A DNA stretch of 32,000 nt from Candidatus Thorarchaeota archaeon (GCA_048882505.1 JBHLRO010000010.1:94047-126046); one strand, 5' to 3'; counted from the stretch's first letter, positions 1,193 through 32,000 are shown. Made by a program: numbers and translations. The notes: a model not told the origin generated them from the sequence alone.

Positions 1193-1282
1193 ATGCCAAA
1201 ATTAATCAAAAAGACTCATTCTTATCTTTTCAAAGGCCTAGTGATTTTCTCCCTTGTTCTACTTTTAGGCTCGTTTCACGCT
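1193..1282 (+). other. Signal peptide / N-terminal anchor helix of the giant protein
   Basis: MPKLIKKTHSYLFK is a basic n-region, followed by GLVIFSLVLLLG (h-region) and SFHA. Whether it is cleaved is uncertain. Confidence 0.8.
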
Positions 1283-19200: not shown

Positions 19201-22200
19201 GCCGATGGGCCATAATTTTACGATCCAGTTTACCTCTAGTGATGGAGCTGCCGGGTTGAAAAACGCTACAGGGAGCACTGACTTTGGTGGGGAGATACCA
19301 GTTGATTGGATCTATTCTAGCGGTTATGAACTCACTTATAACGTAAGCCAAGGCGACACAGACGGTGGAGACGGTGTTACAATTTCAGTTTATGATAAAG
19401 TAGGCAACAAAGTTACTGATGTTTTCTCTGTAAGCTTGGATAACACTAATCCAACTGCACCCAATATTAATAATGTTTTAGAATCCTCCGAATTTTTGTA
19501 TTACAACGCTCTTACTTTATTCTATTCTAACGATCAGGCCATGAGCGCTAGTTTCACCATTCAATTGTCGACAAGTGATAGCGGTGCAGGACTTTTAAAT
19601 GCAACGGGAGAAACCGACTTTGGAGGAGAAACCCCGAATGATTTAACCTATGTTGGGGGGTACGAGCTGACATATGTTATCAGTTCAGGTGAAACAGCTA
19701 GTGGAAACCAGGTAACGATTACGGTTTATGATAATGTCGGGAATTATGATAATTCCCAGAGCCTCGCATGTACCTTAGATAATATGGTTCCCACAGTTCC
19801 CATAATCATTGGGATCGGGGAATCTTCTGAATTTCTCTTTTACGGCGCTCCAACATTTTACTACTCCAATGACCAACCGATGAGTGACAGTTTTACCATT
19901 CAGCTTACGACTAGTGATTCGGGTTCTGGGCTACAAAATGCTACTGGAAGCGCGGAGTTCGGGGGAGAAATACCAGTAGACACTGTGTATGCTACTAGGT
20001 ATGAGCTTTCGTATACTGTATCACAGTTTGAAACCGCTGGGGGTGATAATCAGATTGTGTTAACAGTATATGATAATGTCGGGAACAGCGTAACAGGGCC
20101 ATTAAGTAGTATACTTGATAATGTTGCGCCCACAGTGCCGATCATTACTGCAGTGTATGAAGGATCGGACTACATCTATTATTCAGGATCCATACTCTAT
20201 TATTCAAATGATCAATCCATGACAGATAGTTTCACGATAGAATTTACAACCACAGATGGTTCAGCAGGCTTGCAGAATGCCACAGGAAGTGCAGAATTTA
20301 ATGCTGAAATCCCAAGCGACTCATCTTATTCGAGTGGATACAACCTCAGTTACACCATTAGTCAAGGAGAGACTGATGGAGGAGACGATGTTGTCATCAC
20401 CGTTTATGATTTTGTTGGTAATAAGATTACAAAAACATTTTTGGTGACATTGGATAATACGGCACCGAGCATTACACTAGAATCACATTCAAGTAAAATC
20501 TGGTATAATACTCCGGGTGGTATTACCTCTTACAGCGGATCTGTTTCAGACACCTTAAGTGGAATAACCAGTGCCTTCTTCAATTACTCGACTGATGGTG
20601 GAACTACAAACACATCCTTTACTGCGACTCTTGGAGGCGGGACTTGGCTAGATGACGATGAGATCACGGATACCGTGAACGATAATGTCACCCTTATTGT
20701 TTATGTCTGGGATAACGTCAAAAATGTGAATTCCACTACCGTGGAAATTTGGCATGATGATACACCACCCACTATCACCTATAATGATCCAACAGCAGGC
20801 AGCAGTACTATCTTCTATAATCTTAATGATAATGCCACCACTTTTGACATTGATTTTGGGGTTACAGGGGGTAAAACATTTTATAGTGGATTAGTAAAGG
20901 CTGAATACCAAACCGATGATGGAATGGGATGGTATACCATTTTCGATAATACAGGGGCCCCGTCGCTTCTCGATAATACCACTAACTGGAAGATTGAGCG
21001 ATGGAATGAAACGTTATTCAATGGCGTAAACACAATCGACATCCGAGTCACAGATGCCGCAGGCAACATTCGTACGGATATTTACAGTACTGGAGTATCA
21101 GGGTTCAATTTACGTCTAGATACGCAAGGACCAGTAGCATTGAGTCTTAGCGTCAAAGGAAATGAAATTGGAATTTCTGATCCCTCCTTATATGATTGGG
21201 CAGGATCAGACTTCTATCTTTCATTCAAATTCAACTCTAGTTCCAATATCACCAAATTCTATATCTATAGCGACCAAAACACTGTGATTAAATCATATCT
21301 TAATAAGTCAGGTACGGAAGTATTTACTTGGTATGAGGTTGGTCCTGGCCCCGTTTACCATAATTATACCACTGTTGATCAACTTGTTTTCTTTGACATA
21401 GGTAATACGGGGAATCGGAGTGTCTACGTTAGAGCGGAAAATCAGGCGGGGATAAATAGTAGCTGGATTCAAGTCTACCTCTTTGTGGATGAGGAGGATC
21501 CCACCCTAACGCTTACTTCCATAACTGAACTTAATCTAACGTGGACAATTCACCCAGACGTGTTGGCCGGGAATGGAACTCTCTATTTCAGTGACCAAAT
21601 GGGAGCATCAAATTCTGCTGGCTTTGACGTGACAGTTAACGCCGCTGATAGTGGAAGTGGAATGACAAATGGGTATGTTGATTTCCAAGCTTTTGAAGCA
21701 ATTCCAGCCCAAACAAACACCTATACCGGAACCTTTTCTGTTGGTCAATCAACTACTGATAGGGCATGGGTTCGAGCCTATGCAATAGATGCGTCCGGCC
21801 GAAACAGTAGTTCTATTGCAATAGTTGAAGTTATAAGAGACACTTCTGCTCCAACCTTACCAATCATTACAACTATAGTCGAGAATTCAGAGTTTCTCCA
21901 CTATGATTCAGGTTCAACTACCTTGTATTATTCGAACGACCAACCCATGAGCGCCACATTTACGATCCAACTTACAACTGCTGACTTGGGTGGTGCAGGC
22001 CTCGCAAATGCCACTGGTAGTGCCGATTTCGGTGGTGAAATTCCTACTGATACAGTATATTCGGGAAGATATGATCTTAGTTATACAATTAGCCAATCGG
22101 AGACGGCTGGAGGGGATAATCAAATTATTATAACTGTTTATGACCTGGTGGGTAATAGCAGAACAAAAACGTTAGATTCAACGATTGATAATGCCGCTCC

Positions 22201-25200
22201 CTCACCTCCTATCTTTACTGGTGTTGTTGAAAACTCCGAAAACATTCATTACAATGGAACTCATCTCTTCTACTCCAACGATCAATTGATGGACGATCTC
22301 TTCACTATTCAGTTTACCACGAGTGATGGACTGGGTGCAGGTTTACAAAATGCAACGGGAACACCGGAATTTGGCGGTGAAATTCCATTTGATGCTATTT
22401 ACTCAGCCATGTATGAGCTCTCGTATGCAATCAGCGGAGGCGAAACCGCAGGTGGAAATAATATAAACATCAGTGTTTACGATTTTGTGGGAAACTACAT
22501 CAATGCCACCTTCAAGGTTATCCTTGATAATGTGGCCCCATCGATTCCTATTATTACAGGAGTTTTAGAATCTTCAGAATTCATATACTTCGATGGTTCT
22601 ACGATCCTTTATTATTCCAATGACCAATCCATGAGCGATAGCTTCACCATCCAATTTACTACTGACGATGCACTGGCAGATTTGCAGAATGCTACGGGCA
22701 GTTCCGATTTTGGTGAAGTTAATCGAGTTGACACCACCTATTCTGCTGTTTATGAATTAAATTATACAATTGACCAATCAGAAACCGCTGGTGGTGATAA
22801 CCAAATTGTAATTACGGTTTATGACATGGTCGGGAATTCCATAACAACTGTTATGAGTTGTGTCTTGGATAATGATGCTCCTATTGTTCCCACGATCACA
22901 GGAGTTATAGAAAATTCAGAATACATGGCTTACATTGCACCCGTACTTTATTACTCAAATGATCAACCGATGGGTCATAATTTCACAGTTCAACTTACGA
23001 CAAGTGATGGAATCGTCGGACTACAAAATGCCACGGGAAGTGCAGATTTTGGCGGGGAAACTCCCAGCGACTTCTTTTATGTGGGTATGTATGAAATTAC
23101 ATATAATATAAGCCAAGACGAGACTGCTGGAGCTGGTAGTGAGGTTAATATTACTGTGTACGACTTGGTTGGAAATTTCATTACCGTTACAATGATTTGT
23201 ACGCTTGATAACATCGCGCCAACAACTCCAACCATATCGAGTATAATTGAATCCTCCGATTTTCTCTATTATGATGGCGCCATTCTTTATTATGCTAATA
23301 CTGCACCACTGATGAGTGAAAGTTTTACCATCCAGATGACAACAAGTGATTCAATTTCTGGTCTCCAAAATGCAACGGGGGAAACAGAATTTGGGGATAC
23401 TCCAAGCGATGCAATATATTCTGCTGGATATGAGCTTGTTTATACCGTAGATAACGGAGAATCTGTTCCTGACAATCAAATCACAATCATTGTGTATGAT
23501 AACGTTGGAAATAACATATCGATTAGTTTAGATACAATTCTTGACAATACTGCCCCAACGGGCCTTTCCATTAATGCTATTGATGAAAACAGTGATTTTA
23601 TCTATTATAATGGAATTGATGAGCTCTTCTTTTCTAACGACCAATCCATGAATGATCCGTTTACTATCAGGCTATCCGCACTGGAATTTCGGAGTGGAAT
23701 TCAAAATGTCACGGGCAGTTTCGATTTCGGCGAATCCCGAAGTAGCTTTTCAAATGCCTCGGGGACATTCGATTTGACCTACTCCATCGCCAGCGGAGAA
23801 ACAACAACGGCATCTGATGGAACCTTAACTCTCACAGTATATGATAATGTGGGTAATAAGGCCAGTCTAACCCTTACAGTGACATTGGATAATACTGCAC
23901 CATCGCCGCCTTCGATCACGGGCGTTTCCGAATCTTCCGAGTATTTACATTATAATTCTCCCATTCTTTTTTATTCCAACAATCAACCAATGAGTGCTAG
24001 TTTCACCATTCATTTTACGACAAACGATGTCGGTGCGGGCCGCTTAAATGCGACAGGAGAAACCGATTTTGGAGGAGATACTCCGAATGATACAATATAC
24101 GCTTCTGGGTACGACTTGATCTATACGGTGAGCCAAGCCGAAAGTGCCAGCGGAGGAGCGGTTGGCATTACAGTCTTTGACAATGTGGGAAACAGTGTCA
24201 CCGTAAGTCTAACCTGTACCTTAGATAATGCCGCCCCGACTCTGCCTATAATCACGAATATTGTGGAATCCTCCGAATATATCCATTATAATGCTCCCGT
24301 TCTATACTATTCCTCAGATCAGCCTATGAGCGATCAGTTCACGATCCAATTTACCACCAGCGATGCCATAGCAGGCCTTCAAAACGCGACAGGGGAACTG
24401 GAATTCGGAGAAACCAACGTGGTAGATACGACTTATTCAGGAGGATATGAGCTTAATTACACGATAGATAACGGAGATACTGCTACTGGTGATCAAATTA
24501 CAATCACTGTATTTGATCTGGTGGGGAACAGCGTTAGTTTGATATTAAGCGCTATACTCGACAACACAAATCCGACATCCCCGTCGATTGTTGATGTTTT
24601 GGAAACATCTGAGTACTTGTATTACGATGGGGCTACTTTTTATTACTCCAATGACGATGGATTAAGTGATTCATTTACAATTATTATTTCAACGGGTGAT
24701 TCTGGCTCAGGCCTTAAGAATGCGACAGGAGAAACGGAATTTGGCAATACACCCAGTGACACAGTATATTCTGCTGGATTTGAACTTACTTATACGGTGG
24801 ATAACGGAGAATCTGTTACTGGTGGTCAAATTACGATAACTATTTATGACATGGTCGGGAATACCGTAAGCGTTAATCTGGCTGCGACTGAGGACAATTT
24901 GGCCCCCAACATCTCCCTCTTAAACACTGCGTTACGGGAATCATCCGATTTCACTTATTACCCACTAAATGGCACGCAGGTCCTCTATTATAGTAATAAG
25001 ATGTTATCTGACGTTACAGTCTATATTAATGTGACGACCTTCGATGGATCATCAGGTCTTCAGGTAATGGAATTCCCATCACTATTCAATGTCGGCAGTA
25101 CGTTTAATACGACAGTATACAACCAATCCTATGTTGTCTCTACCACCAGCGGGGATAATGGGACATTTACTTTCAGGAGCTTCGATAATGTTGGAAATAT

Positions 25201-28200
25201 CGCTATGACAACACTAGACATTGTGCAGGATAATCAGGCCCCTGATCAATCGGTCATTAGTGCGATTACCGAAAGTTCGCAATACCTGCACACGTCGGGA
25301 GTCGCGAAGCTATGGTATTCAGATCTGATGGGTGGGGTACCGGTTTCAGTAGGTATAGATGTTAACGGAATCGATCAAGGAGGATCTCTCGCAGCGGGAC
25401 TGGCGGTGATCACTTTCCCAACCATAGGCGATGAGTCTCCAGGAAATATCACTTCTGGTGCCTCTACGTATTCTGTGACCTATAATCTCAGTTCCACTGA
25501 CAGTACCACAGGTGATTTGTTCTTCACGGTATATGATCGGGTGGGAAATACGTATCAGATCCCTCTCGAAGTGATTAATGATATTACAGTACCAACGATC
25601 AGTTTTACCGATGTCACGAATCCAATATATGATCCCGATGCTAATGAATTGGATAGCACAGGAAATTGGTATGATCAAGGTGTTCTATCCAGTGGATTCT
25701 CTGTAAGTTCCACACCTACGGATCCATTAAGTGGTTCCCGCCAAGGAAGTGGGGTATTTACCGTTTTTATTGATTGGGATAGCACCAATGATGTGGATGA
25801 TCAATTGAGTATTAATGCGGGTGCAGATGGCGATGATGTTATAACAGGCTTGACTGATGATGGGGACGGCAACATTGTAATAACCCTTACCGCCTATGAT
25901 AATGTTGCCAATTCTGCACAAACCAGCATTACGATCCGATTTGACAATACGAAGCCGTCTGCGACCGATTCGACGCTGTTAGACCAGAATGGGCCTATCA
26001 TTTCATTGTCGGGTCAATCCTCAGATGCTAGCTCTGGGGTTCAGAAGATCACAATTTTGGATTACAACGGCTCACACTTCCCCACAATAGTCTCTAGTGG
26101 ATTTTCCAGCTGGTCTCTCGACAATACATCAGCCTTAGATGGAACTATTCCAGCGGGTCAAAATATCGTAGTAAATGTGACAGTTTTTGACAACGTCAAC
26201 AATAAGGATACCTATAATGTCACTATCACGTTCCATAGCCTGAAATTTCTTGTTTTCTCCCATAACATTCCGAAACGGGTAGAGATCGATGATCCCAATC
26301 CCCTGGATTGGAATATTACCATCGATTTCGAATATGATGGCACTTTAGCTGGCAGTGGCACCACAGTGATCGATCGGTTCATCGATCTTACCCAGTTTGA
26401 AGCGTGGATAAACGATACCTCCTTGGCTATTAAGCCAGGGTCCTTGGCGTGGCTTCCTGGCCCTCGACTTCAGTTTACTGTCATTCTTCCCAATAGTTCG
26501 AGCACTCCAGAGGTGTTAGAACACCTGACCATCGGTGAGACATACCTTAAAAACCTCCGTGTGGAATGGAATATTACTACTCCCTCCATTGATGTCAGAA
26601 TCGGTCATAATGTATCAAACGTTGTGTCCTACCATGATTTGGAGATCTGGTACATCGGTGACGACCTAGATATTACAGAGACGGATAATCCCGATATCAT
26701 GAATCTGGTACTACAATTCCGTAAGGATTATCAACCTCTGGATCCATTTTCAGGAGATCTAACATTCTTTGTCAATGGAGGCTCCGCCACTTTAGAAGGT
26801 GGAATTTCTCCTGTTGGTACTGGAACAGGCAATTGGAGTGTTCCGATTCGCCTTCCATCTGGTTTGACTCCAGGCTTGCATAGCATATCCTTTAGCTGGC
26901 GGTACAACCTTGGCGAATATTACTACGTCATAGACTCTAATACCAGCATTGATGTAGTTAATTACCATGACATAGACATTACGGTGGCTCTCCCCGCCCT
27001 GGATTCGTTAAGGATATTTGAAATCGATTCAGATTTCTCATCTTTGGTCTATTTCAACATTACTGAAGATAACGGTAATGGAAGTGGACCTCTGCCAGTT
27101 ACAGGACGAGGTATCAGTGATCTTCTTGATTTTCGAATTCGGGGGCTAAGTCTCCTTTCTCACACTTCGAGTTTCCTGTCTGGGAGTGGGAATAGCGATT
27201 ATTCTTTCAACTTTACTCTCTTTGATGCTAATACTACCGCGTCTTGGATTGGAAACAACATTCTTACTTTCCGTATAAATACGAGTACAGGGTTATCAGA
27301 TTGGGGATCCATTATCCTCATCGGACATGATTTGGACGTAGTGATAAATAGTATCCTTACGATAGGTGGACTTGACATATTTGATCCTGATGAGCGTACA
27401 GAATTTGATATGATCATTCAGGTTCGAGAAGACCAAGGAAGTGGGCCTCAGGCGATCTTGGGCCTAGATATCGGTAATTTTGTGAGACTTTACATGGAGA
27501 ATGTGGGAGATCCCACCAAGAATGCCACTATTGGCTTCGTTGATAGTTGGAACCCGACTGTAAACGCCGGTGAATATACCGTTCGTTTCACATTAGAGGC
27601 CCTTGCCGCCAGCCAGCTTAGCCTCGGTCCAATTAGAGTAACATTCGAACTAAACGACTTTGAAGGTCATCGCGCGTTTGATTCCAATACCGATTTAGAT
27701 AGTAGAGATTTTGTTAACCTTTTGGGTTTGGAATGGATTAGTACACCCTTTGGTTTCTTTACATTCGATCCAGCTAATACTACTTCGGATATTACGTTCC
27801 GTTTGTCGTTGAATCAGGTTTTACAGGTCAACTTCCGCATTTACGCTCTAGATACTGGGCTTACTCTTACCGATCCTATTAATGTATACTGGGAAACCCC
27901 GTGGAATACCTCCCAGCCCAATCCTCCACCAATCTTGAGATCTGGGAACGTTACTCTTAATCTGACCTCTAGTCAGCCGTATCGTCAGGCTTTCATTGCC
28001 TATGCAGAGGGTAATCGGGAGAAACAATTACAATTCCAGCCGTGGCGTTTCTACGTTGAGTGGGATAGAATGATTGCATCGAATGTGACCATTGATGATT
28101 ACTCTACCTCGGCGGATAACAACAGCGTCCTTAATGCTGGCGGCAATTATACTTTAATTTATACTGCACTCTTTGATCAGTCCGGTAAAACTGCTGGCAG

Positions 28201-31200
28201 CAGTCAACTACAGCTCAACTTAACTGTTTTTGAATTCATTGGGGGTGGTTGGAGTCCAGTTGACGGTAGTCTCACTGAACATTTGGCCAACGGAACTGAT
28301 ATAATTTACCCAGTGGTTGGGGGAATGGTGACCATAGATCATTTAGATGGAATTGGTTCACGAATCTTCTCCATCGATAATGGGTCTCAGATCATTGGAA
28401 TAATGACAGTCTATGACACTCAGAATGTTTTTCCTTTTGGAGATGGACAGCTCCAAATTGACCTCCAATTCTTTGATTTAGCCAAAGTGGATTTAACGGT
28501 TCGTCCTATAACTGAAATTGAATCGGGGGTGACTTATCGCTTTTATTCCTCTTACCCTCCATACGCTGGTCCTGTGTACTCTTTGGTTAATGATACATCT
28601 GGTGCCATTTTCCAGGAAACTTTGATTTGGACGAAATTTTTAGTAACTCTGACCCCAGAAGATGGACGAATTCCAAAACTCACCACGGGTACAATCTACG
28701 TGGATGTTGCATACGCTCACGACAGCACCTGGGTACTCGATAACCAAGTTAGGGTGTTTCTCCTCGATAATACACTTGATCAAAATCGTTCTGAAGCCAA
28801 TTGGATAAGCAACAGGGCAACGTTCACAGGCCTACTTTCCCAAGGAATTGTCGAATTAGTTAAATATAATATCTCCGCTTTTGTGGACTCCCGATATGGG
28901 ATTTTCGTCTTTGAGGATGCAATATCGGGATCTTCTGATGCATACACGGAAATAATCTGGGACCAAGTTATTTTTGAGTTTACCCTTGCAGAGCCATGGG
29001 GCGCAGATTTACGGTTCAACGTTAATTCCAGCGCCATTATTCAGGTAAAGGCATATTATGACTTTGATAAAACACCATTTAACGGAACTATCCTCACAAG
29101 GCATCGTAATATCTATACCCCCATGTTGACGGAATTTACCCAGGTTCGGAACTGGAATGATAGTGTAGCGATTAAACTAAAGCCTGATGAACCAGAACAA
29201 AGCGGCCCGGGAACGACTCTCTTTTTGTTAATCAATGTAACCGATGACTACAGCTGGGGTCTCAATGGCACTCGCCCTGGCTTAGGTTATCGAGTGATCT
29301 ACGGAACTGGGAGTAAGTTCATGATTTTAAGATGGGATCGCATTATTATGGAATTTGAGCATGCCCCCTCCTATAACCCAGGTGATTCCTTGAATATGAC
29401 CCTGAAAGCTTATTATGAGAGCACCTTGACACTTATAAATACTTCTAACTTTGTTTATACAGTTTATAAGGACGGGCAGCTGTACCCACCTGAGAACAGA
29501 TCCGTTCTCTCCTTTAATGACCATGAAATGTACCCACGAAGTCATACCTACATGATCGCCTTCGCGTATGATTTCCTGACAAATTTGACGGGTTCTTATG
29601 ATTCACTTACGAAAAACCCATTTCCTTCTGATGTTGTTCCATGGATTGATACCCAAAATCCCCGTTTGGTGGAACAGAAACTTATCGATTTTGGCAACGG
29701 GACGCTCGGGTTTCTTGTAGTTGCTACTGACGATCTCCCAGAAGTCTATTTCGGGAGTGGAATAGAGAATGTGACGGTTCAACTGACAATCGGGACATCG
29801 TTACCATCCCGCACCAGGTGGTTATTAAGGCGATATGCAAACATGAGCTCAGGTGTAATATTCTTTGGCAATGTTACAACGGGAAGTTCTACTGAAGACT
29901 TTAGATGGAATAATACAATCACCTACAGGCTAGTCATAACGGATAAAAATGGAAATCCCCGATCCTGGGATTTCCGTGTGAATCTTCTTGCAGATAGCGG
30001 TCCCCCTGAAATTTCGAAGGTAACGGTTTCGTATTCAAATGATACCGATGGCAATCTCACGCTTGAAGCTTTTAGTTACGATGAATGGGCGGGGCTATTG
30101 AATGCCTCCATAAGTTTCCGTACCTTGGGAGATTCAAACTGGTCGACTCCAGTATTAATGGATCTTACTCTACTTGATAAGGATAACAATGGGACGTTTT
30201 CAATCCCTAAAATGTTTGCAGTTGGCGCAAGCAAGGAATATAAAATTGTCATTTTCGATCGTGCTGGGAATTCTGCTGCCTTTGAAGGATTGATTCAAGT
30301 TCTGGACAGAGCTGGCCCGCAAGTATTGCAACCAATAACGCGAGAAACTTTCACGTTTGAACAGAATAAGTTCGGTGAATTCTTCATCCAGATTCAGGTG
30401 GTTGATAACGGTTCAGACATTGCGAATGCTATCCTGCTTTACGAGATCGCAGGAACTATTGGTAGCATTGAATTGACCGAGATATCTGGTAGTATCGCAG
30501 GTGAGGGCTCCTCGATTTTGGCCGCTGCTTACAGGGATCAACGAACGTTTTCCCGAAGGTTCACCATTCAGCCTGATCTAATTAATACCCAGTCCCCAAG
30601 GTTTTCCTTACTTCTGACTGATTCGGAAGGAAATCAACGTACAATTACCAATTCACAAATTATGGCATGGTGGGAGAGCATTTACCCACAGGATACCCGT
30701 CCAATTGATAGTATTGTACCAAGCGTCTTTCAGTTAATTGAAGAACCACTTGTATTGATTATCATGGCTGTATTCATACTAGGTTTCGCCTTCGTTGCTG
30801 TTCAGCGTTTCCGTACGATCAGTGGATTTGATAAGAAGAAGGTTTTACAGGACATTACTAAAGTTTCTGATACGGAGGTGTGGGAAGAAAATGACAAGAT
30901 CTCAATTGGTTTAACAGCCAGCTTCTTTGATCAGGTGAAAGGGCCTCAACCAATCATTGTATATCCGGATCGATTATGGTCATCGGAGATGATGATTGTA
31001 TCGTTAGCTGATCGTTCTTTTTCAACGCTCGGATTTGTACCAAATCCTAATGATGACAAACACGCGACCTTCCGCTATCACATCAGTGGTGAGAAATGTA
31101 CCGTCTTTGGATATGCTTTTGCGATCGAAAATCCGGAAGCGCGTGGTGGACAGGAGAATCTGGCAATCTGCTTCGTAATTCGTCCTCCTTGGGGTACACT

Positions 31201-31381
31201 AGAGAATTTAAATCGATTCTTGAATGAATTATTGGAACATATGCGGCGAATTAGCAACCTCATGAAGGAAGGAGTTGATACGAAAGTCGTCCAGAAAGAG
31301 ATGGAAAAAACTCGAGACTTCCTGACGAGAGCGATGCTGGTATTCCGCAGAAAATACAAGAAGGAGTTTGTTGAAAAATGA
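1193..31381 (+). CDS. Giant (10,062 aa) membrane-anchored Ig-repeat surface glycoprotein with a cytoplasmic longin/uDENN-like C-terminal domain
   Basis: This is an uninterrupted 30-kb frame with an N-terminal signal peptide. It has dozens of ~113-aa repeats ending in (Y/F)D-x-V-G-N ... D-x-x-x-P, typical of bacterial/archaeal Ig-like domains. The composition is S/T/D/G-rich and K/R-poor. A C-terminal hydrophobic helix is followed by QRFR...KKK and then a folded 192-aa tail. Confidence 0.95.
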   Translation: MPKLIKKTHSYLFKGLVIFSLVLLLGSFHALEPSNSLYPVTNIFSFGTKGPISDGIDNHTFISETGRQVHEITSSTPAYKIRLIFPVPGESADFLTLRLKARYTEEFTNLIRWNQNKNVSISVFPFESSIMDGINQSVQVLDAMELYWGTTIKFPFNNTALEGRDYFEIAFFMWNRTSVLTGLQFEDITFKNTPTPLSGQNNLLMGFLSTSAVCLWIAFPNRFSPLVACFIMIALVIVPLTLTLQTIRFLDNVEKTEAGVSRFTFFGRVYEQRDLGNGLFSLRMVKDLSRAFELQALSGTGDSDIYPGVFKDETVSQELQGIETVFLQPIMDSTDSIDSPVTYGSQFTPLLPRYKFSDITGNPGWWNTSYKYVRQVNITANSALDTNYTVQADLDTSTPVTASKMRADGKDLRVAYYNQTDSTWYELDRVILNNNSQKTAVFFRLQKAVSASSSDNNYAIFYGVQGNPGIPPNSTNKIFLDNDDFSSKNLNNYNLATNWAAALDTSKPTNIGWWITEDIALHSGGTNDYLNRSNLLTTNNEIIVLGKLTTSGGTKTSIELRSNASPSDDLRITHLSSSPYLRLERYNGTIYTLSSTTGSFSTTTWYLYKFNFVGDTMKARVWEAGQDEPSTWNLTYTASSGDNFPSNGHLLFKSNGGMEIGMWALRAGLSNDPAVTVDLEQQELVKITDIQIQNTEYNGSRYWDNNDGSADDFIRIKITAVWNVTGDPYLGELSVGHSLNPTYFGSTSGNVGGTTTIDVEENPIGSVTTFDGITVGAAIVGPNNPFGTDVYLDPGLTFSDIGWDAAEPTGGSWSTDFDTTDNTGDGFTPYGAGFGIYDAFYDDAAYTADASGWSDGTGAGILEYYIKSSAGNLGPADADGVDVSTTLPAEGVHNIQYAIQDQVGNWANGSAIINVYYSTAAPSGFTVDINGTGSWTPTTPSYAWISNPTAITSGTLYLGQAGNSIWNITVNEGTWNAGGAWQVIFESGWGGTEVSDTAAPYYSANYHSNTNAEADINTFIVNRNGVVSTITIRTLSDTSAPEMASISVTGDSPIPGYSDWDQDGAGFSIDRATITEKGDFGLAINASNSETFANYRYMGGTSPSTAITVTHLWIRTTGSGTAAVALYTGGTLSNPTTATKQAEAFNVAVSAGWNRIDIPDTLVSADAIVWMSVALDTGLYYATSGNGLKGDWQESRGRWSQSGGSDPTQASPNNPGSGSFAPAWYNMYMEYDGGAGGNQAVYDVDNSNPSFDLSSNDPYTYPVDVGADGTYTFYAVAVDRVGNKGIVRSDLGFVDETDPILGTTSFTDADYTNATHDYYDQGVRATATYRIPFTETNVFNITVVDIINAADRASDAAAGQTSPFDSTISLSNLFSDGEYTITITITDKVGRTDTTVTGGPTSIFLDNTDPVLTDALSSFEETSGEITKVYGLPGSELFYFANSFTGGAIIRLYATGTDSGSGVRGIDFGVFGADNPAEDTVSPYRGQYTINNDDVSGTITVTIYDKVGNSDSGIITATEDAANPSISLSGETESSTFLYAAYGDNTQGVYGSLMGTTQGYTISGTASDATAGLLSLSDNTTFGDNPSNTGSLSNWQFIYTIDTADNGDIVVVYTATDNVGNNNTVTYTFYEDNSNPLITDPMSIYQESGDTGEVYGDIGSDVFYFSNSFSTFATVTFTATGLEAGKAGIRGIDFGSFGSDDPGEDTSAPFTGQYTINGADLAGSITVTIYDNVGNSGSDTITCTEDAAPPTISITGETESSAYLYAGYGTVKEGVYGSGMGSLQSYTISGTASDADAGLLSITDDQSFGNDPSNSGTNSSWSFVYQIDAADSGNVVITYTATDLVGNTATDAYTFNEDNTNPSITVTQAASATNESSIFLYYDNVSAFGYYSPNMLGVLQTFNVGGTASDASGLASVTDDTTFGNNPARSGSLTSWSFGYQIDDGDAVYGTFTVTYTATDNVGNTFTDSFQFIFDNTNPTVSVDTAYILDGGSPYLHWDGVGSKIWYGDDMPSGQSLTVGIDAADASSGLDYAIAANHFGGTAAQLTDDTEDTNGGRTYDVPVVDINATDTWTGSFGITVYDNVGNSLQTTVDISRDTGIPSISVTGEIESSVYLYAGYGTTKQGVYSGSGMGSIQSFTISGTASDASSGLYSITDNSAFGDDPINTGSNASWLFLYQIDSGDNGDVTIAYTATDLVGNTAGDTYTFFEDGTNPTLTDNMSAYAEFVDTTEVYGVTGTDTFYFSNSFSSSATVEFTATGFDTGYAGVRGIDFGTFGGDNPVEDTSAPYIGQYTINNVDSSGSITVTIYDNVGNNDSGTITCIEDATNPSLSDPMSAYTEDSGDIADVYGVIGTNTFYFSNTIPTSAMVTFTATGSDTGGAGVRGIDFGSFGGDDPTEDTSAPYQGQYTLTNADATGAITVTIYDNVGNPGSATITCTEDSTNPSLSDAMSAYSEDAGDTADVFGNEGTNLLYFSNTIPTSATVTFTATGSDASSGVRGIDFGVFGENPAEDTSAPYTGTYIIDNSDTSGSITVTIYDNVNNSASGTITCTEDSTSPSLSDAMSAYNEISGEDTDVYGLIGSNTFYFSNSFSTSVTINFTATGSDSGSGVRGIDFGTFGADNPVEDNTAPYEGTYVIDNADTSGSITVTIYDQVNNFASATITATEDSTNPTLSDPMSAYSEDAGDLGDVYGIIGSDTFYFSDSFTSSATVTFTATGSDAGGAGLRGLDFGIFGGNDPIEDPSAPFTGQYVIDNASSSGSIQVVIYDNVNNSNIGTITCIEDAINPSGIILSSYLDLDDNTGDGYVPSDGTGTNTEAFYDEATFIADVSVTEAGSGILSLQLKRLGGSYGTNVPSGTNVDATLALGNNSIYYMIIDNVGNNATGFANVDVFYSTAAPTGMDIDITGTGLWSKTSPSYAWIFDSTDITSGTLYLGNVGNTNWGIVMDGSGNWNAGGEWKVIFEAGWGQATDITDTTPSFSTGNVYSSNIGAEADIWVDIVNRNGISQRIILTTTADTTGPTMASITVTGDSPVVSNWDQNGAEFNIDFATTSDGGSGANGWYVEYNNPVPRANWTTLDPYVYTNDVGDGSSNPYPFYAVPVDKVGNIGAGVRSDNGFIDETDPILGTTSFTDAGYTNGNENWYDHGTAGSATFRIPFTELNVYSISVVCTIASSDRASDAGIDQTSPFDSTITLLNTYPDGTYVITITVMDKSGRTDTTVAGGPTWINLDNTDPSISVSGESETSNFLYAEYGTIVQGYYGSGMGASLQDFTISGIASDTGVGVSSITDNTSFGNNPSNGGSPTSWSFLYQIDVADNGNVTVIYTASDYVGNTATTLYTFYEDNTAPTGYSLSLDPDTTTDIGYLPNTNYYDDDSVDVTTGGTITEIHSGLPSLRYTYRIGSNAWSPWSDVSIHQFTGVLDGTYNLEVMVRDNVGNNGTAQAASSSVTVDTDSPAKFNLTLTRVGSGFGANFNETLMELIFNSQKNDFFTANITSNGTSDIGNSGYWKIEWDKYSQFETASNITIAGLPESKNFNYLGDVNGTFLIRLINNAGNYQEWNITAIEVVATVTLTITEIVESSDFLYHDGIISHNYGYYSDKMGGTVVFTLRGTATTTSGGLMFTTDDNSTLSAANTGTESNWEFNYTFDSTTGSTYDTFLVIITGTDNLAFTGNTTFEFRYDNTNPTAPTIIGISESSVNLYYNSTDFIYSSDQAMTDPFTIQVTTSDNGVGDVGLYKANASSDFGAEVPEDSSYTTQYDLTYTVSQSETAGGDNQVIIAVYDLVGNNASVSLNCLLDDTPPTVTVTGESENSWYLYAGYGSGNEGVYGSLMTISLAYTISGTAVDTIAGLISLDDNTTFGDNPGNTGTLSSWQYVYVIDAADNGNITVVYSASDNVGNIGTTSYRFYEDNTAPTVPTQLITNPSGSPYLYLNSTARFYFSDQMGLTPVEVQISGTGSDALAGLKNATFPAHFGDSPAADLTPTSWQASYNIHGTDPEQTGPQTNINVFVYDNVGNVNTVTFTFKGDNSSPNVSLTGISEDALVYYLYVASNSLIYYSTVGSGNRNFTVTVLVQEPLAVLDAGVKNVSFPNVFTGSDGGINASSGGSHSRTWQWSYSIPISAIENGSFTITAYDQVNNSQSIDLEIYHDSAAPSAPTITDVLESSEFLYYSASTLFYSNDQVMSASFTIQLTTADLESGLENATGSADFGGETPNDSIYSGGYELSYVINQGETDGGDDVVVTVYDKVSNSITVTLTVTLDNTAPTGLSVNSVYEYGSEFLHVIGSTLYYSNDQTMSEDFTIEVLASDVDSGLLNATGEAEFGNSPGDISYLAGYNLTYTIDMGESAGGGNVIVWIYDNVGNNASISLITTLDNSGPTSITITNVIETSDFLYYDGAREILFFSNDQTMSELFTIQVTAVDPAAGIKNATGETEFGDSPVDTTYSAGFDLSYTIDLSEATSDGYVTVTIFDMCANSNTVDLNTTVDNVGPRDQKITQINDFGSKYIYLYNGSSLILYINNQTSSDYLFFIYVSDNEPANESGRYLAEGSLYFGEIPVATTYQYVLRYTLNQTENVDNGTLVITTFDRCNNSNSVGLTVQVDRTPPALVPGYSFNDFGSDYIHNNGTHFIFSSLMPFTQTIRISGSVTDIYASVNGSGIDHVDYLPAFGSSPTTTFGPSWIADYGINSTDSEHGSNGSVSFRVYDNVNNSRLIFIPYVSDTTPPSGLSIIDILEDLLPEYLHYNSTLIAIFYSHVRPEKGERKFTVRVSAADLGGAGLRNTSFPTIGVGFSTGGFDTSDADGFWNFSYTEDGSSGTFNGSLTVTVYDNVGNSNTVNFNVYSDFAPPAGLTLVELIEDSDFLYYDPGSETFYYSNSHSTPQPFTINITADDPNAVHSGLLGANGSVDFSETHSTVVFDGNFSLTYDVSNGESASGNDLTITVYDKVGNSADFHLSSILDNLAPSAPTITNVVENSYLLYYSAPTFYYSNDQTMSASFTIQLTTSDTLAGLRNATGSADFGGETPSDSVYSGGYELSYTISQGETDGGDGVLITIYDRVGNSVTGSLTVLLDNVSPTGSILTLLESSEYLYFNGTHLFYSNDQSMSDPFTIRVTSSDAASGLLNATGEDDFGDINVGDTSYSTYYELTYLVDSGDSASGAQVDIFVYDQVGNSLSLALSAVIDNDAPSSVTLSSLTGTDIANYLYFNGTHLFYSNDQVMSESFTLKLVVTELISGIKNVTGTLDFGTIPSTTTNVSGTFDIQYTVDQSETAGLDNQINISAFDNVGNVHSSFVLPVILDNTGPIIPAIQNVIENSEYLYYSGTTLYYANSHPTQSEKFSVNITASDTLSGILWINGSIDFGETPSDPDYAKGYFLVNYTVGFNEEASGSQIAFTVYDRVKNTNSITLNLNKDNTAPSGISITSVTENSEYIYYSLGTKILYYSSDQAMLGQPFTITIVAQDNVGGAGLFNLTGSTEFGDTPSDLTYVGEYSVNYIIDSFETNVSAIILSVYDRVGNLNNSITLDLKLDNAAPSAPSITGIVESSPYLYYSSPTFYYSNDQPMGHNFTIQFTTNDTLAGLQNATGSVDFGGEIPVDVIYSAGYEITYNVSQGETDGGNDVVITVYDLVGNSITGTLNVILDNAAPTVPTITDVLAPSEFLYYNGTHFFYSNDQPMSDSFTIQLTTSDALAGLKNATGSTEFGGETPVDTGYLSGYELTYTISSGETDGGDDVVITIYDLVGNSITGTLNVILDNAAPMAPTITGVLESSEHLHYSAPTFFYSNDQPMADSFTIQLTTGDSDSGLQNATGSTDFGGETPSDTSYSAGYDLIYTVDQSETAGGDNQIVITIYDQVGNFISVSLDSVLDNTGPINTNLVTVVIQKNIQNLYYANGTKTLYYSNDISVSDSFSVRVSAQDPSSGLQKANASEFGETPSTTDYSSGYYQLSFTVNTGESSPSFTVTVWDNVGNPSNIALTTVLDNNAPSAPIITGVIESSPYLYYSSPTFYYSNDQPMGHNFTIQFTSSDGAAGLKNATGSTDFGGEIPVDWIYSSGYELTYNVSQGDTDGGDGVTISVYDKVGNKVTDVFSVSLDNTNPTAPNINNVLESSEFLYYNALTLFYSNDQAMSASFTIQLSTSDSGAGLLNATGETDFGGETPNDLTYVGGYELTYVISSGETASGNQVTITVYDNVGNYDNSQSLACTLDNMVPTVPIIIGIGESSEFLFYGAPTFYYSNDQPMSDSFTIQLTTSDSGSGLQNATGSAEFGGEIPVDTVYATRYELSYTVSQFETAGGDNQIVLTVYDNVGNSVTGPLSSILDNVAPTVPIITAVYEGSDYIYYSGSILYYSNDQSMTDSFTIEFTTTDGSAGLQNATGSAEFNAEIPSDSSYSSGYNLSYTISQGETDGGDDVVITVYDFVGNKITKTFLVTLDNTAPSITLESHSSKIWYNTPGGITSYSGSVSDTLSGITSAFFNYSTDGGTTNTSFTATLGGGTWLDDDEITDTVNDNVTLIVYVWDNVKNVNSTTVEIWHDDTPPTITYNDPTAGSSTIFYNLNDNATTFDIDFGVTGGKTFYSGLVKAEYQTDDGMGWYTIFDNTGAPSLLDNTTNWKIERWNETLFNGVNTIDIRVTDAAGNIRTDIYSTGVSGFNLRLDTQGPVALSLSVKGNEIGISDPSLYDWAGSDFYLSFKFNSSSNITKFYIYSDQNTVIKSYLNKSGTEVFTWYEVGPGPVYHNYTTVDQLVFFDIGNTGNRSVYVRAENQAGINSSWIQVYLFVDEEDPTLTLTSITELNLTWTIHPDVLAGNGTLYFSDQMGASNSAGFDVTVNAADSGSGMTNGYVDFQAFEAIPAQTNTYTGTFSVGQSTTDRAWVRAYAIDASGRNSSSIAIVEVIRDTSAPTLPIITTIVENSEFLHYDSGSTTLYYSNDQPMSATFTIQLTTADLGGAGLANATGSADFGGEIPTDTVYSGRYDLSYTISQSETAGGDNQIIITVYDLVGNSRTKTLDSTIDNAAPSPPIFTGVVENSENIHYNGTHLFYSNDQLMDDLFTIQFTTSDGLGAGLQNATGTPEFGGEIPFDAIYSAMYELSYAISGGETAGGNNINISVYDFVGNYINATFKVILDNVAPSIPIITGVLESSEFIYFDGSTILYYSNDQSMSDSFTIQFTTDDALADLQNATGSSDFGEVNRVDTTYSAVYELNYTIDQSETAGGDNQIVITVYDMVGNSITTVMSCVLDNDAPIVPTITGVIENSEYMAYIAPVLYYSNDQPMGHNFTVQLTTSDGIVGLQNATGSADFGGETPSDFFYVGMYEITYNISQDETAGAGSEVNITVYDLVGNFITVTMICTLDNIAPTTPTISSIIESSDFLYYDGAILYYANTAPLMSESFTIQMTTSDSISGLQNATGETEFGDTPSDAIYSAGYELVYTVDNGESVPDNQITIIVYDNVGNNISISLDTILDNTAPTGLSINAIDENSDFIYYNGIDELFFSNDQSMNDPFTIRLSALEFRSGIQNVTGSFDFGESRSSFSNASGTFDLTYSIASGETTTASDGTLTLTVYDNVGNKASLTLTVTLDNTAPSPPSITGVSESSEYLHYNSPILFYSNNQPMSASFTIHFTTNDVGAGRLNATGETDFGGDTPNDTIYASGYDLIYTVSQAESASGGAVGITVFDNVGNSVTVSLTCTLDNAAPTLPIITNIVESSEYIHYNAPVLYYSSDQPMSDQFTIQFTTSDAIAGLQNATGELEFGETNVVDTTYSGGYELNYTIDNGDTATGDQITITVFDLVGNSVSLILSAILDNTNPTSPSIVDVLETSEYLYYDGATFYYSNDDGLSDSFTIIISTGDSGSGLKNATGETEFGNTPSDTVYSAGFELTYTVDNGESVTGGQITITIYDMVGNTVSVNLAATEDNLAPNISLLNTALRESSDFTYYPLNGTQVLYYSNKMLSDVTVYINVTTFDGSSGLQVMEFPSLFNVGSTFNTTVYNQSYVVSTTSGDNGTFTFRSFDNVGNIAMTTLDIVQDNQAPDQSVISAITESSQYLHTSGVAKLWYSDLMGGVPVSVGIDVNGIDQGGSLAAGLAVITFPTIGDESPGNITSGASTYSVTYNLSSTDSTTGDLFFTVYDRVGNTYQIPLEVINDITVPTISFTDVTNPIYDPDANELDSTGNWYDQGVLSSGFSVSSTPTDPLSGSRQGSGVFTVFIDWDSTNDVDDQLSINAGADGDDVITGLTDDGDGNIVITLTAYDNVANSAQTSITIRFDNTKPSATDSTLLDQNGPIISLSGQSSDASSGVQKITILDYNGSHFPTIVSSGFSSWSLDNTSALDGTIPAGQNIVVNVTVFDNVNNKDTYNVTITFHSLKFLVFSHNIPKRVEIDDPNPLDWNITIDFEYDGTLAGSGTTVIDRFIDLTQFEAWINDTSLAIKPGSLAWLPGPRLQFTVILPNSSSTPEVLEHLTIGETYLKNLRVEWNITTPSIDVRIGHNVSNVVSYHDLEIWYIGDDLDITETDNPDIMNLVLQFRKDYQPLDPFSGDLTFFVNGGSATLEGGISPVGTGTGNWSVPIRLPSGLTPGLHSISFSWRYNLGEYYYVIDSNTSIDVVNYHDIDITVALPALDSLRIFEIDSDFSSLVYFNITEDNGNGSGPLPVTGRGISDLLDFRIRGLSLLSHTSSFLSGSGNSDYSFNFTLFDANTTASWIGNNILTFRINTSTGLSDWGSIILIGHDLDVVINSILTIGGLDIFDPDERTEFDMIIQVREDQGSGPQAILGLDIGNFVRLYMENVGDPTKNATIGFVDSWNPTVNAGEYTVRFTLEALAASQLSLGPIRVTFELNDFEGHRAFDSNTDLDSRDFVNLLGLEWISTPFGFFTFDPANTTSDITFRLSLNQVLQVNFRIYALDTGLTLTDPINVYWETPWNTSQPNPPPILRSGNVTLNLTSSQPYRQAFIAYAEGNREKQLQFQPWRFYVEWDRMIASNVTIDDYSTSADNNSVLNAGGNYTLIYTALFDQSGKTAGSSQLQLNLTVFEFIGGGWSPVDGSLTEHLANGTDIIYPVVGGMVTIDHLDGIGSRIFSIDNGSQIIGIMTVYDTQNVFPFGDGQLQIDLQFFDLAKVDLTVRPITEIESGVTYRFYSSYPPYAGPVYSLVNDTSGAIFQETLIWTKFLVTLTPEDGRIPKLTTGTIYVDVAYAHDSTWVLDNQVRVFLLDNTLDQNRSEANWISNRATFTGLLSQGIVELVKYNISAFVDSRYGIFVFEDAISGSSDAYTEIIWDQVIFEFTLAEPWGADLRFNVNSSAIIQVKAYYDFDKTPFNGTILTRHRNIYTPMLTEFTQVRNWNDSVAIKLKPDEPEQSGPGTTLFLLINVTDDYSWGLNGTRPGLGYRVIYGTGSKFMILRWDRIIMEFEHAPSYNPGDSLNMTLKAYYESTLTLINTSNFVYTVYKDGQLYPPENRSVLSFNDHEMYPRSHTYMIAFAYDFLTNLTGSYDSLTKNPFPSDVVPWIDTQNPRLVEQKLIDFGNGTLGFLVVATDDLPEVYFGSGIENVTVQLTIGTSLPSRTRWLLRRYANMSSGVIFFGNVTTGSSTEDFRWNNTITYRLVITDKNGNPRSWDFRVNLLADSGPPEISKVTVSYSNDTDGNLTLEAFSYDEWAGLLNASISFRTLGDSNWSTPVLMDLTLLDKDNNGTFSIPKMFAVGASKEYKIVIFDRAGNSAAFEGLIQVLDRAGPQVLQPITRETFTFEQNKFGEFFIQIQVVDNGSDIANAILLYEIAGTIGSIELTEISGSIAGEGSSILAAAYRDQRTFSRRFTIQPDLINTQSPRFSLLLTDSEGNQRTITNSQIMAWWESIYPQDTRPIDSIVPSVFQLIEEPLVLIIMAVFILGFAFVAVQRFRTISGFDKKKVLQDITKVSDTEVWEENDKISIGLTASFFDQVKGPQPIIVYPDRLWSSEMMIVSLADRSFSTLGFVPNPNDDKHATFRYHISGEKCTVFGYAFAIENPEARGGQENLAICFVIRPPWGTLENLNRFLNELLEHMRRISNLMKEGVDTKVVQKEMEKTRDFLTRAMLVFRRKYKKEFVEK
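1799..1925 (+). other. Internal transmembrane hairpin (two hydrophobic helices)
   Basis: LLMGFLSTSAVCLWIAF, a short loop PNRFSP, then LVACFIMIALVIVPLTLTL. Confidence 0.7.
2285..2650 (+). other. DUF2341-like domain
   Basis: The segment has the recognisable family signature: GWWNTSYKYVRQVNIT ... LDTST...KMRADGKDLRV ... ELDRVI ... VFFRLQ ... YAIFYG ... IFLDNDDF. Confidence 0.75.
2650..3230 (+). other. ConA/LamG-like lectin-glucanase beta-sandwich (putative glycan-binding)
   Basis: WYLYKFNFVGDTMKARVWEAGQDEPSTW...GHL matches the pattern W-x-x-h-K-h...G..h-K-A-R-V-W..G..E-P..W. This pattern is common in ConA-like domains that follow DUF2341. Confidence 0.55.
3617..5422 (+). repeat. Multi-domain block A, copy 1 (602 aa including a 156-aa insertion)
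   Basis: It is colinear with 9548..10888 and shares DNTGDG, AFYD, YSTAAP, SGTLYLG, WNAGGxW, VNRNG, SIxVTGDSP, DETDPILGTTSFTDA, QTSPFDSTI and GRTDTTVxGGPT. Confidence 0.9.
5423..7834 (+). repeat. Mixed zone of class B (GVRGIDFG) and class C (YLYAGYG / DNTTFGDNP) Ig-like repeats
   Basis: Class B copies are at 5423..5764 and 6101..6442. Class C copies are at 5765..6100, 6443..6778, ~6779..7129 (variant) and ~7496..7834. Further class C copies occur at ~10889..11227 and ~12587..12922. Confidence 0.85.
7835..9547 (+). repeat. Five tandem class B Ig-like repeats (~114 aa each)
   Basis: Consensus: SLSDxMSAYxE...VYG..G..TFYFSN...SATVTFTATGSD.G.GVRGIDFG.FG.DNP.EDTSAPY.G.Y.I.N.D.SGSITVTIYDNV.N...TITCTEDxTNP. 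Confidence 0.92.
9548..10888 (+). repeat. Multi-domain block A, copy 2 (447 aa)
   Basis: It has the same motifs as copy 1. A 25-nt stretch is identical: acgagtccgttcgattcaaccatca at 5273..5297 and 10739..10763. Confidence 0.9.
16064..20467 (+). repeat. Thirteen tandem class E Ig-like repeats (~113 aa each)
   Basis: Consensus: P.IT.V.ESSE.LYY....FYYSNDQPMS.SFTIQLTTSD..AGL.NATGS.DFGGE.P.D..YS.GYEL.Y.I.QGET.GG..V.ITVYD.VGN....L...LDN.AP. About five more class E copies lie between 12240 and 16063. Confidence 0.92.
21854..24907 (+). repeat. Nine tandem class E Ig-like repeats
   Basis: The consensus is the same as the first class E array, and 3054 nt / 9 gives about 339 nt per unit. Confidence 0.92.
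26231..30720 (+). other. Membrane-proximal stalk of divergent beta-sandwich domains
   Basis: The sequence is not near-repetitive but has periodic linkers. H-type linkers have His codons at 26234, 26633, 26966 and 27326. W-type linkers have Trp codons at 27734, 28061, 28628, 28958, 29333 and 29642. Three Ig-like domains follow, ending in TDKNGN, FDRAGN and TDSEGN. N-x-S/T sequons are dense throughout. Confidence 0.65.
30749..30802 (+). other. C-terminal transmembrane helix (aa 9853-9870)
   Basis: LVLIIMAVFILGFAFVAV is followed by QRFR...DKKK, consistent with the positive-inside rule. Confidence 0.92.
30899..31378 (+). other. Cytoplasmic longin/uDENN-like domain (FLCN/SMCR8/NPRL2-type)
   Basis: The first hairpin reads IGLTASFFDQVKGPQPIIVYP (compare SMCR8 FSEQVGPQPLLTIP, recalled). 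Next is helix MMIVSLADRSF, then hairpin CTVFGYAFAIENPEARGGQENLAICFVI (compare FLCN [28 protein letters not shown], recalled), then two C-terminal amphipathic helices. This beta-beta-alpha-beta-beta-beta-alpha-alpha order fits the longin fold. Confidence 0.8.
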
Positions 31382-32000
31382 TGAAATCAGGAATAAATCG
31401 GATTATAAACTCCAGATCGATTAACAATATTATTTCCTTCTTGTTAATTGGCATATTCACGATTTCGTTCTACGTAGAAGTATCGAATGGCCTCATGGGC
31501 GTTGCTCCTTCTAATCATGAATCTATCAGTTCAAATAGTCCAGGTGATTTAAGATTAATGTCATCTTCACCTTATGATCTCACGGATTCCTCTTTTAATG
31601 AAGAAACGAGAACATTGGCATCATCTTCTGAGACTGGAGACATTTATACTAGTGGTGAAGCCTTTGCGCCTCAGTCGAGCGAAAGGTTTCCTAGATCTGT
31701 ACCGAGATTTGATGTGGGAGGTTCTAGCGATGGTCATGTGGTAATCAATCGAATTAGTCCCGAAGCCATGGAAATCAATGCTACACAGATGGAATTTATA
31801 TTAAACTTTACAATCATCAATTCCCCAGGAAATCCTTCCTCTGCTCTTGAAAATCTGACCATATCAAATGCTACAAACGTATTTCGAATTACGGATATTA
31901 CTAACTGGTATTTCAGTGTAAGTCCGTTAACCGATAACTATTCCTTGAATTTCATACTAAACAGTACGGTATTATCCGATTTAACCTTTGGAGAGTATAA
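31378..32000 (+). CDS. 3'-truncated secreted/surface protein, translationally coupled to the giant ORF (missing from the ORF track)
   Basis: ATG at 31378 (and in-frame 31381) overlaps the TGA at 31379..31381. Manual translation is open to the window end: MMKSGINRIINSRSINNIISFLLIGIFTISFYVEVSNGLMG... It has a signal-like N-terminus, a Ser-rich linker, then beta-rich sequence with six sequons (NAT, NFT, NLT, NAT, NYS, NST). Confidence 0.88.
   Translation, partial: MMKSGINRIINSRSINNIISFLLIGIFTISFYVEVSNGLMGVAPSNHESISSNSPGDLRLMSSSPYDLTDSSFNEETRTLASSSETGDIYTSGEAFAPQSSERFPRSVPRFDVGGSSDGHVVINRISPEAMEINATQMEFILNFTIINSPGNPSSALENLTISNATNVFRITDITNWYFSVSPLTDNYSLNFILNSTVLSDLTFGEY

Follow-up and report, generated by a model that had tools for sequence, protein, structure and literature searches.

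A folliculin-class longin domain with a candidate arginine finger in the cytoplasmic tail of a giant Hodarchaeal surface protein

Introduction

What is the function of the short cytoplasmic end of a surface protein more than ten thousand residues long? The question is raised by a 32,000-nucleotide stretch of DNA (GCA_048882505.1, JBHLRO010000010.1:94047-126046; the whole of it is called here the window, and positions are counted from its first letter), in which gene 1 of a Hodarchaeales (Asgard) archaeon encodes a protein of 10,062 residues. The original prediction proposed that the C-terminal tail of this protein keeps the arginine-finger motif of the GTPase-activating proteins (GAPs) FLCN and SMCR8, and that it may be a membrane-tethered GAP module. 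The analysis described below indicates that the tail is a longin domain of the FLCN/SMCR8/NPRL2 class, homologous to those catalytic longin domains, and that genes for such tails are linked with genes for Rag-like GTPases.

Growth control in eukaryotes relies on longin-domain GAPs, FLCN-FNIP and GATOR1, which act on Rag GTPases at the lysosome; longin proteins and small GTPases are both numerous in Asgard archaea. FLCN-like and NPRL2-like longins are known in these organisms, and the GTPase in the FLCN-like operon was stated to be non-Rag (Liu et al., bioRxiv 10.1101/2020.10.19.343400); heimdallarchaeial FLCN/SMCR8-type longins with a Gly-Pro (GP) motif and an arginine finger have also been reported (PMC12290439). 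Matching regulators with their GTPases is hard, since operons are rarely shared (Tran et al., PMC10933270). The tail family supplies a match of this kind, as it consists of membrane-tethered longins of the GAP class, with both hallmarks, adjoining Rag-like genes in several Heimdallarchaeia families; it makes testable whether the arginine-finger GAP mechanism of longins is pre-eukaryotic, which GTPase family it served, and whether it originated in cell-surface signalling.

The features of the giant protein on which the argument depends are:

1193..31381, plus strand: gene 1, a single open reading frame (ORF) of 10,062 amino acids (aa), with a repeat-rich and sequon-rich ectodomain, one C-terminal transmembrane helix and a cytoplasmic tail
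30749..30802, plus strand: C-terminal transmembrane helix, aa 9853-9870, directly followed by lysine- and arginine-rich (K/R-rich) residues (positive-inside)
30803..31378, plus strand: cytoplasmic tail, 192 aa, aa 9871-10062 (protein P0003)

Since the hydrophobic helix is followed by a K/R-rich stretch, and all the 210 N-x-S/T sequons are found in the ectodomain and none in the tail, the latter is cytoplasmic as judged from the sequence, in agreement with the original prediction.

The tail is a longin domain of the folliculin class

The structure of the tail was modelled with AlphaFold2 on an alignment of 113 homologous tails (alignment A1), with a predicted local distance difference test (pLDDT) value of 93.5 and a predicted template modelling (pTM) score of 0.89. 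Two parts can be distinguished in the model:

30833..30901, plus strand: two juxtamembrane helices, tail residues 11-33, N-terminal to the longin core
30902..31354, plus strand: longin core, tail residues 34-184, strand-strand-helix-strand-strand-strand-helix-helix

The succession of two strands, one helix, three strands and two helices is that of the longin fold. The domain is preceded by the transmembrane helix and by the 9,850-aa ectodomain, and the chain stops 8 residues beyond the last longin helix. A Foldseek search of AlphaFold-SwissProt with the tail model gave SMCR8 as the top match (E 3e-6), followed by Lst7, NPRL2, C9orf72, AVL9 and DENND6. FLCN obtained structural scores of 12.7 (8dhb_J), 11.8 (6nzd_H) and 11.8 (6ulg_L), with a root-mean-square deviation of 2.6-2.8 A over 134-139 residues; the C9orf72-SMCR8 complex chain scored 11.7, the Lst4 longin 11.2, GATOR1 9.4-9.8 and DENND1B 9.8, while the generic longins Sec22b and Ykt6 reached about 7.8. 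FLCN, SMCR8 and NPRL2, the three proteins named in the original prediction, are thus all among the top matches.

The search of Pfam gave a weaker signal: Folliculin (PF11704) is the top match of the tail, at 18.0 bits against a cut-off of 23.3. The same family is matched independently by 30 of the 113 homologs, always below threshold, whereas any other family is matched by two of them at most. Searches of the sequences in the PDB, either with the tail or with the family profile, returned nothing significant, and FLCN was reached only by structure or by Pfam and hhalign. When the tail family was aligned by hhalign with a family of 30 soluble Hodarchaeal proteins, most of which carry PF11704, the probability was 91% and the E value 1e-6 over 138 columns. 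A chance resemblance to FLCN, or convergence on a common alpha/beta fold, could be suspected from the sub-threshold match of the single sequence and from the presence of PAS/LOV and LuxR-type ligand-binding domains in the Foldseek list of the model; however, the independent PF11704 matches, the hhalign result and the structural scores make it extremely improbable. Homology with the catalytic longins is therefore retained. The giant protein has no DENN domain following the longin domain in the same polypeptide, and it is not an ortholog of FLCN.

Arg9984 and the GP motif

In NPRL2 the arginine finger is Arg78, equivalent to that of FLCN. The latter is Arg164, which is catalytic for RagC/D (PMC8107286); the corresponding finger of SMCR8 in the CSW complex is Arg147. 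The GP motif, found at the beginning of strand 2 or immediately before it, adjoins the arginine finger and is reported to be specific to the GAP-type longins FLCN, NPRL2, SMCR8 and C9orf72 (PMC12290439, Traffic 2025). Both elements can be recognised in the tail, together with a second conserved arginine:

31097..31180, plus strand: segment highlighted by the original prediction, aa 9969-9996, comprising strand 4, loop and strand 5 of the longin domain
31133..31159, plus strand: conserved loop P-E-A-R-G-G-Q-E-N, aa 9981-9989, the best-conserved block of the family
31142..31144, plus strand: codon of Arg9984, the candidate arginine finger, at PF11704 position 61, where FLCN Arg164 also falls; 102 of 113 tails retain it
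30941..30946, plus strand: Gly9917-Pro9918, the GP motif, which opens strand 2; at least 103 of 113 tails retain it, and it is aligned with the GP of Asgard Pfam-Folliculin proteins
31313..31315, plus strand: codon of Arg10041, a last-helix residue that 112 of 113 tails retain; gene-3 tails, which have no arginine finger, have it too

The location of the segment and of the arginine codon was verified. The FLCN segment to which it had been compared corresponds exactly to residues 149-176 of 6ulg_L, with Arg164 as its arginine, and recomputation of the ungapped alignment gave the same 9 identities out of 28. The proposed equivalence with Arg164 also stood. FLCN residues 149-176 occupy positions 46-73 of PF11704, tail residues 100-170 positions 47-113, and residues 92-152 of a soluble 446-aa Asgard protein positions 44-102, so that the arginine falls on position 61 in all three, on the assumption that the preceding 14-17 residues are free of gaps. 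This register was obtained from the match of the full tail, since a 28-mer and a 47-mer taken from the segment, pieces too short for Pfam, gave no match. In the alignment by hhalign, A-R-G of the tail lies on A-R-G of the soluble Asgard family, where the Arg is invariant, and its G-P on the likewise invariant G29-P30. In the model Arg9984 is found in the loop that joins strands 97-109 and 117-126, the fourth and the fifth, while G47-P48 opens strand 47-54, the second one; hence, the tail has an arginine in the strand 4-5 loop, at the position equivalent to FLCN Arg164, as well as the GP motif.

The soluble 446-aa protein is encoded by the host genome itself (contig C2, L036:1001-2338; region G000:C2:280500-283500). 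It has an N-terminal Folliculin-type longin that scores 22.4 bits on PF11704, with GP at residues 41-42 and Arg109, and most of its homologs are annotated as PF11704. A Roadblock/LC7 gene is located 380 nt upstream of its gene, and an Arf-superfamily GTPase gene, outside the Gtr1_RagA set, about 5 kb away.

The arginine is kept in 90% of the 113 homologous tails (102), which bears out the expected conservation; 101 tails have both Arg and GP, and GP is mostly absent too from tails without Arg. Arg10041 probably has a structural role, because it is maintained in 112 of 113 tails, and likewise in tails without the finger; Arg9984, unlike Arg10041, appears to behave as a functional residue. Among the tails of the gene-1-type clade in the alignment, several long-branch members have no Arg, and most of them have no GP either; the proteins concerned are P0016, P0018, P0031, P0039, P0043, P0052, P0072, P0074, P0106, P0117 and P0127. 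This suggests that, within the clade, tails of the catalytic type have repeatedly turned into degenerate ones.

A conserved arginine could also serve binding instead of catalysis, in which case the tail would be a longin platform for small GTPases, Rag-like or others, serving not as a GAP but as an exchange factor for guanine nucleotides (GEF), scaffold or membrane anchor, akin to Ragulator, Mon1-Ccz1, TRAPP or DENN. The GP motif, described as exclusive to the GAP class (PMC12290439), speaks against this possibility, as do the joint retention and joint loss of GP and Arg and the structural scores, in which the GAP-class longins (FLCN, SMCR8/C9orf72, Lst4 and NPRL2) lie 2-5 Z units above GEF-type or generic ones. 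However, longin and roadblock modules mostly act as GEFs or platforms (PMC10933270), DENND1B and DENND6 are found among the structural matches, and the linkage with Rag-like genes presented below is compatible with any type of regulator. A platform is thus considered possible, though somewhat doubtful, and a role of the tail as an arginine-finger GAP is preferred.

A cluster of three tail genes, one lacking the arginine

Gene 1 is followed by two other genes for tail-bearing proteins:

31378..32000, plus strand: start of gene 2, with an ATGA overlap with the stop of gene 1; it runs off the contig
L035:166-3306 (-) = G000:C9:121065-124205: gene 3, 1,046 aa, directly after gene 2; its tail has neither GP nor Arg

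Alignment to the relative L009 indicates that contig C10, which carries gene 1, is continued, beyond a gap of about 1.2 kb, by contig C9 in reverse; gene 2 resumes on the reverse strand of the latter (G000:C9:127031-124209). Its product, of about 1,544 aa, has its own tail with GP and P-Q-A-R-G-G. The order of giant gene, gene for about 1,540 aa and gene for about 1,000 aa is found on single contigs in at least 10 relatives. A maximum-likelihood tree places the gene-1, gene-2 and gene-3 tails in three distinct clades, each with good support; therefore, the module is old and does not consist of recent copies.

The gene-3 tail is a clear homolog of the tail family (hhalign 98%, E 2e-13). In 17 genomes GP is replaced by G-Q-x-E-G, a variable P-x-G-G-G-Q-G is present where the other tails have P-x-A-R-G-G-x-E-N, and a conserved 13-residue insertion and an acidic C-terminal extension are found. 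The consensus of this extension is approximately E-I-E-T-E-x-D-E-x-S-D-D-I-M-x-D-F-E-x-E-F-L, followed by variable D/E-rich sequence; it is possibly a docking peptide.

The association of catalytic-type tails with a degenerate one resembles the FLCN-FNIP, NPRL2-NPRL3 and SMCR8-C9orf72 pairs, and by this analogy the tails might pair with each other. Prediction of a complex between the gene 1 and gene 3 tails gave a score of 0.00, the fold of the partner itself being uncertain, a result that counts neither in favour of binding nor against it. An AlphaFold2 model of the gene 3 tail, from a 17-sequence alignment, had a pLDDT of 46.8 and was unusable. A more specific proposal is that the tails of the three presumably co-transcribed proteins, two with GP and Arg and a third that has lost both and gained the acidic extension, form an FLCN:FNIP-like longin GAP for a Rag-like heterodimer, so that contact of the ectodomain would switch the Rag module directly. 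This assembly is regarded as rather unlikely; if true, it would represent a receptor-coupled forerunner of eukaryotic Rag-FLCN/GATOR1 nutrient sensing, placed at the cell surface instead of the lysosome. The Arg-less third tail offers a natural test of the origin of the pairing between catalytic and non-catalytic longins.

Distribution of the tail family and linkage with Rag-like genes

Only 147 relatives of the tail were found among 1.84 billion representative proteins scanned, and their names in public records are hypothetical proteins of Heimdallarchaeota, Hodarchaeales or Kariarchaeaceae. The domain ends at most 27 residues from the C-terminus in all the 112 full-length homologs, which reach 5,809 aa. 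The family is restricted to Heimdallarchaeia and is almost exclusively C-terminal on large single-pass surface proteins. The host genome has nine tails, carried by ORFs that range from 823 to 10,069 codons, and one further copy that is divergent; 1-11 copies are present in 20 of the 21 genomes of the genus that were searched, and none, one or two in other families of the class.

Among 63 Arf/Ras-superfamily GTPase genes of the host genome, seven are strong Gtr1_RagA members (E below 1e-30), and for five of these seven the end of a paralogous tail gene is less than 4.5 kb away. On contig C1 a Rag-like gene (300 aa, PF04670 E 7e-39) lies 57 nt downstream of a 3,684-aa paralog, and a second one about 4.3 kb from the tail of the same paralog; on contig C4 (L039, G000:C4:45500-53300) a divergent pair of Rag-like genes, for 312 and 739 aa, adjoins a 1,562-aa paralog, and on contig C50 a 648-aa Rag-like gene (L040:3947-5890) adjoins another. 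These neighbourhoods are also found in the genomes G016, G011 and G007. Six genomes belonging to other families (G025, G028, G029, G033, G037 and G040), with only two to four Rag-like genes in total, have a single tail gene, for about 1,440-1,600 aa; a Rag-like gene follows it on the same strand within about 150-185 nt, and in five of the six a second, convergent Rag-like gene comes next. The tails of three of these operons were read (G028, G033 and G037), and all keep the arginine, as A-R-G-G or M-R-G-G. Near tail genes, Ras/Arf-superfamily GTPases show marginal enrichment (P about 0.01, with 3 of 9 within 2 kb); the linkage signal is specific to the Gtr1_RagA subfamily.

Some details of these loci can be added. 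The 312-aa Rag-like protein of contig C4 consists of a GTPase and a C-terminal domain, and at its locus a WD40 beta-propeller protein of 705 aa is also encoded, as is a Ras-family GTPase. The divergent short/long Rag pair also occurs in G007, G009 and G011; by analogy with RagA-RagC, it may be a heterodimer. The 648-aa Rag-like gene of contig C50 is broken by a run of N in the assembly, giving 34 X when translated.

The conservation across families of an operon with Rag-like GTPases argues against a tail without any GTPase role, whose task would be dimerisation, clustering, sorting or cytoskeleton anchoring of the giant surface proteins, with a loop that binds another ligand or stabilises the fold. 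Such a task would suit a domain that is nearly always at the C-terminus of large surface proteins, and several tail genes, including the giant one, have no GTPase neighbour; moreover, the longin domains of SNAREs work without GTPases (PMC10933270). However, a structural arginine should persist in the gene-3 tails, as Arg10041 does, and both Arg9984 and GP are gone there. A role unrelated to GTPases is thus held to be unlikely. The linkage with Rag/Gtr GTPase genes provides real support for the membrane-tethered GAP proposed originally, though indirect, because it concerns paralogs and single-copy relatives and not the cluster of the giant gene.

Proposed mechanism and comparison with known systems

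Taken at about an even chance of being right, the preferred reading is that the tail, tethered to the membrane, regulates Rag-like GTPases, most probably as an arginine-finger GAP working as a longin dimer. The GTPases regulated by it would be of the Rag/Gtr family, at the membrane's inner face, and the dimer would probably be formed with the tails of the other two, presumably co-transcribed, proteins, or else be a homodimer. Signalling might proceed in either direction, from the ectodomain to a GTPase switch, as originally proposed, or from the GTPase to the surface protein.

Several points weigh against this reading. The majority of longin and DENN domains work as GEFs or platforms rather than as GAPs. 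The DENN module of FLCN and SMCR8 is missing from the tail, which remains below the curated PF11704 cut-off, its homology being recovered at profile level only. The equivalence of Arg9984 with FLCN Arg164 is established at alignment level, the three-dimensional comparison being by ranges and not by residue-level superposition, and Arg is absent in 11 of the 113 family members. Finally, no Rag gene is found near the cluster of the giant gene, either on contig C10 or after gene 3, where a pyruvate phosphate dikinase-like gene is located; therefore, its link with Rag is by family membership only.

Folliculin (FLCN; Lst7 in yeast), the catalytic subunit of the RagC/D GAP FLCN-FNIP (PDB 6NZD, 6ULG, 8DHB), has about 16% identity with the tail; differently from FLCN, the archaeal domain is devoid of a C-terminal DENN, has a sub-cut-off Pfam score and is fused behind a transmembrane helix to a huge extracellular protein. 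With the Asgard FLCN/SMCR8-type longins already described (PMC12290439) it shares the Heimdallarchaeia lineage, GP and Arg, and the profile homology reported above; however, those longins are soluble, while here the domain is C-terminal on single-pass surface proteins. In SMCR8-C9orf72, an Arf GAP, and in NPRL2-NPRL3 of GATOR1, a RagA/B GAP, a catalytic longin with GP and arginine finger is paired with a non-catalytic one, and the three-gene cluster likewise mixes Arg tails with an Arg-less tail, the archaeal pairing being conjectural; in eukaryotes the subunits are soluble proteins with DENN or other C-terminal domains, brought to the membrane by adaptors. The Lokiarchaeota Roadblock-Longin protein, whose longin structure has been solved (PDB 8YQG), has a soluble roadblock-longin architecture and 13% identity with the tail. 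A parallel in design is given by the Asgard NPRL2-like longins fused to two-component domains (Liu et al.), in which, as in the tail, a longin of the GAP class serves a prokaryote-style signalling protein as output or input module; in those fusions the partners are receiver or kinase domains, here they are giant surface proteins. The published work found makes no mention of the fusion to a transmembrane helix or giant surface protein, of an Arg-less partner tail or of linkage with Rag genes. New elements are the residue-level mapping, the joint loss of the two motifs (GP and Arg), and a three-gene module that is conserved and whose third tail is degenerate. The original prediction covered the arginine, but neither the GP motif, the paralogs nor the Arg-less tail two genes downstream.

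Other features of the window

An upstream ORF at positions 2-796, with a ThiN thiamine-phosphate synthase domain (E 3e-19), has no relation to the tail. In the ectodomain Pfam gave weak immunoglobulin-like (Ig-like) matches alone (Big_13 and Y_Y_Y); it is made of diverged Ig-like repeats that are hardly recognised by Pfam. At positions 17971-18630 a unit of 336 nt (112 aa) occurs twice, the two copies being 78% alike.
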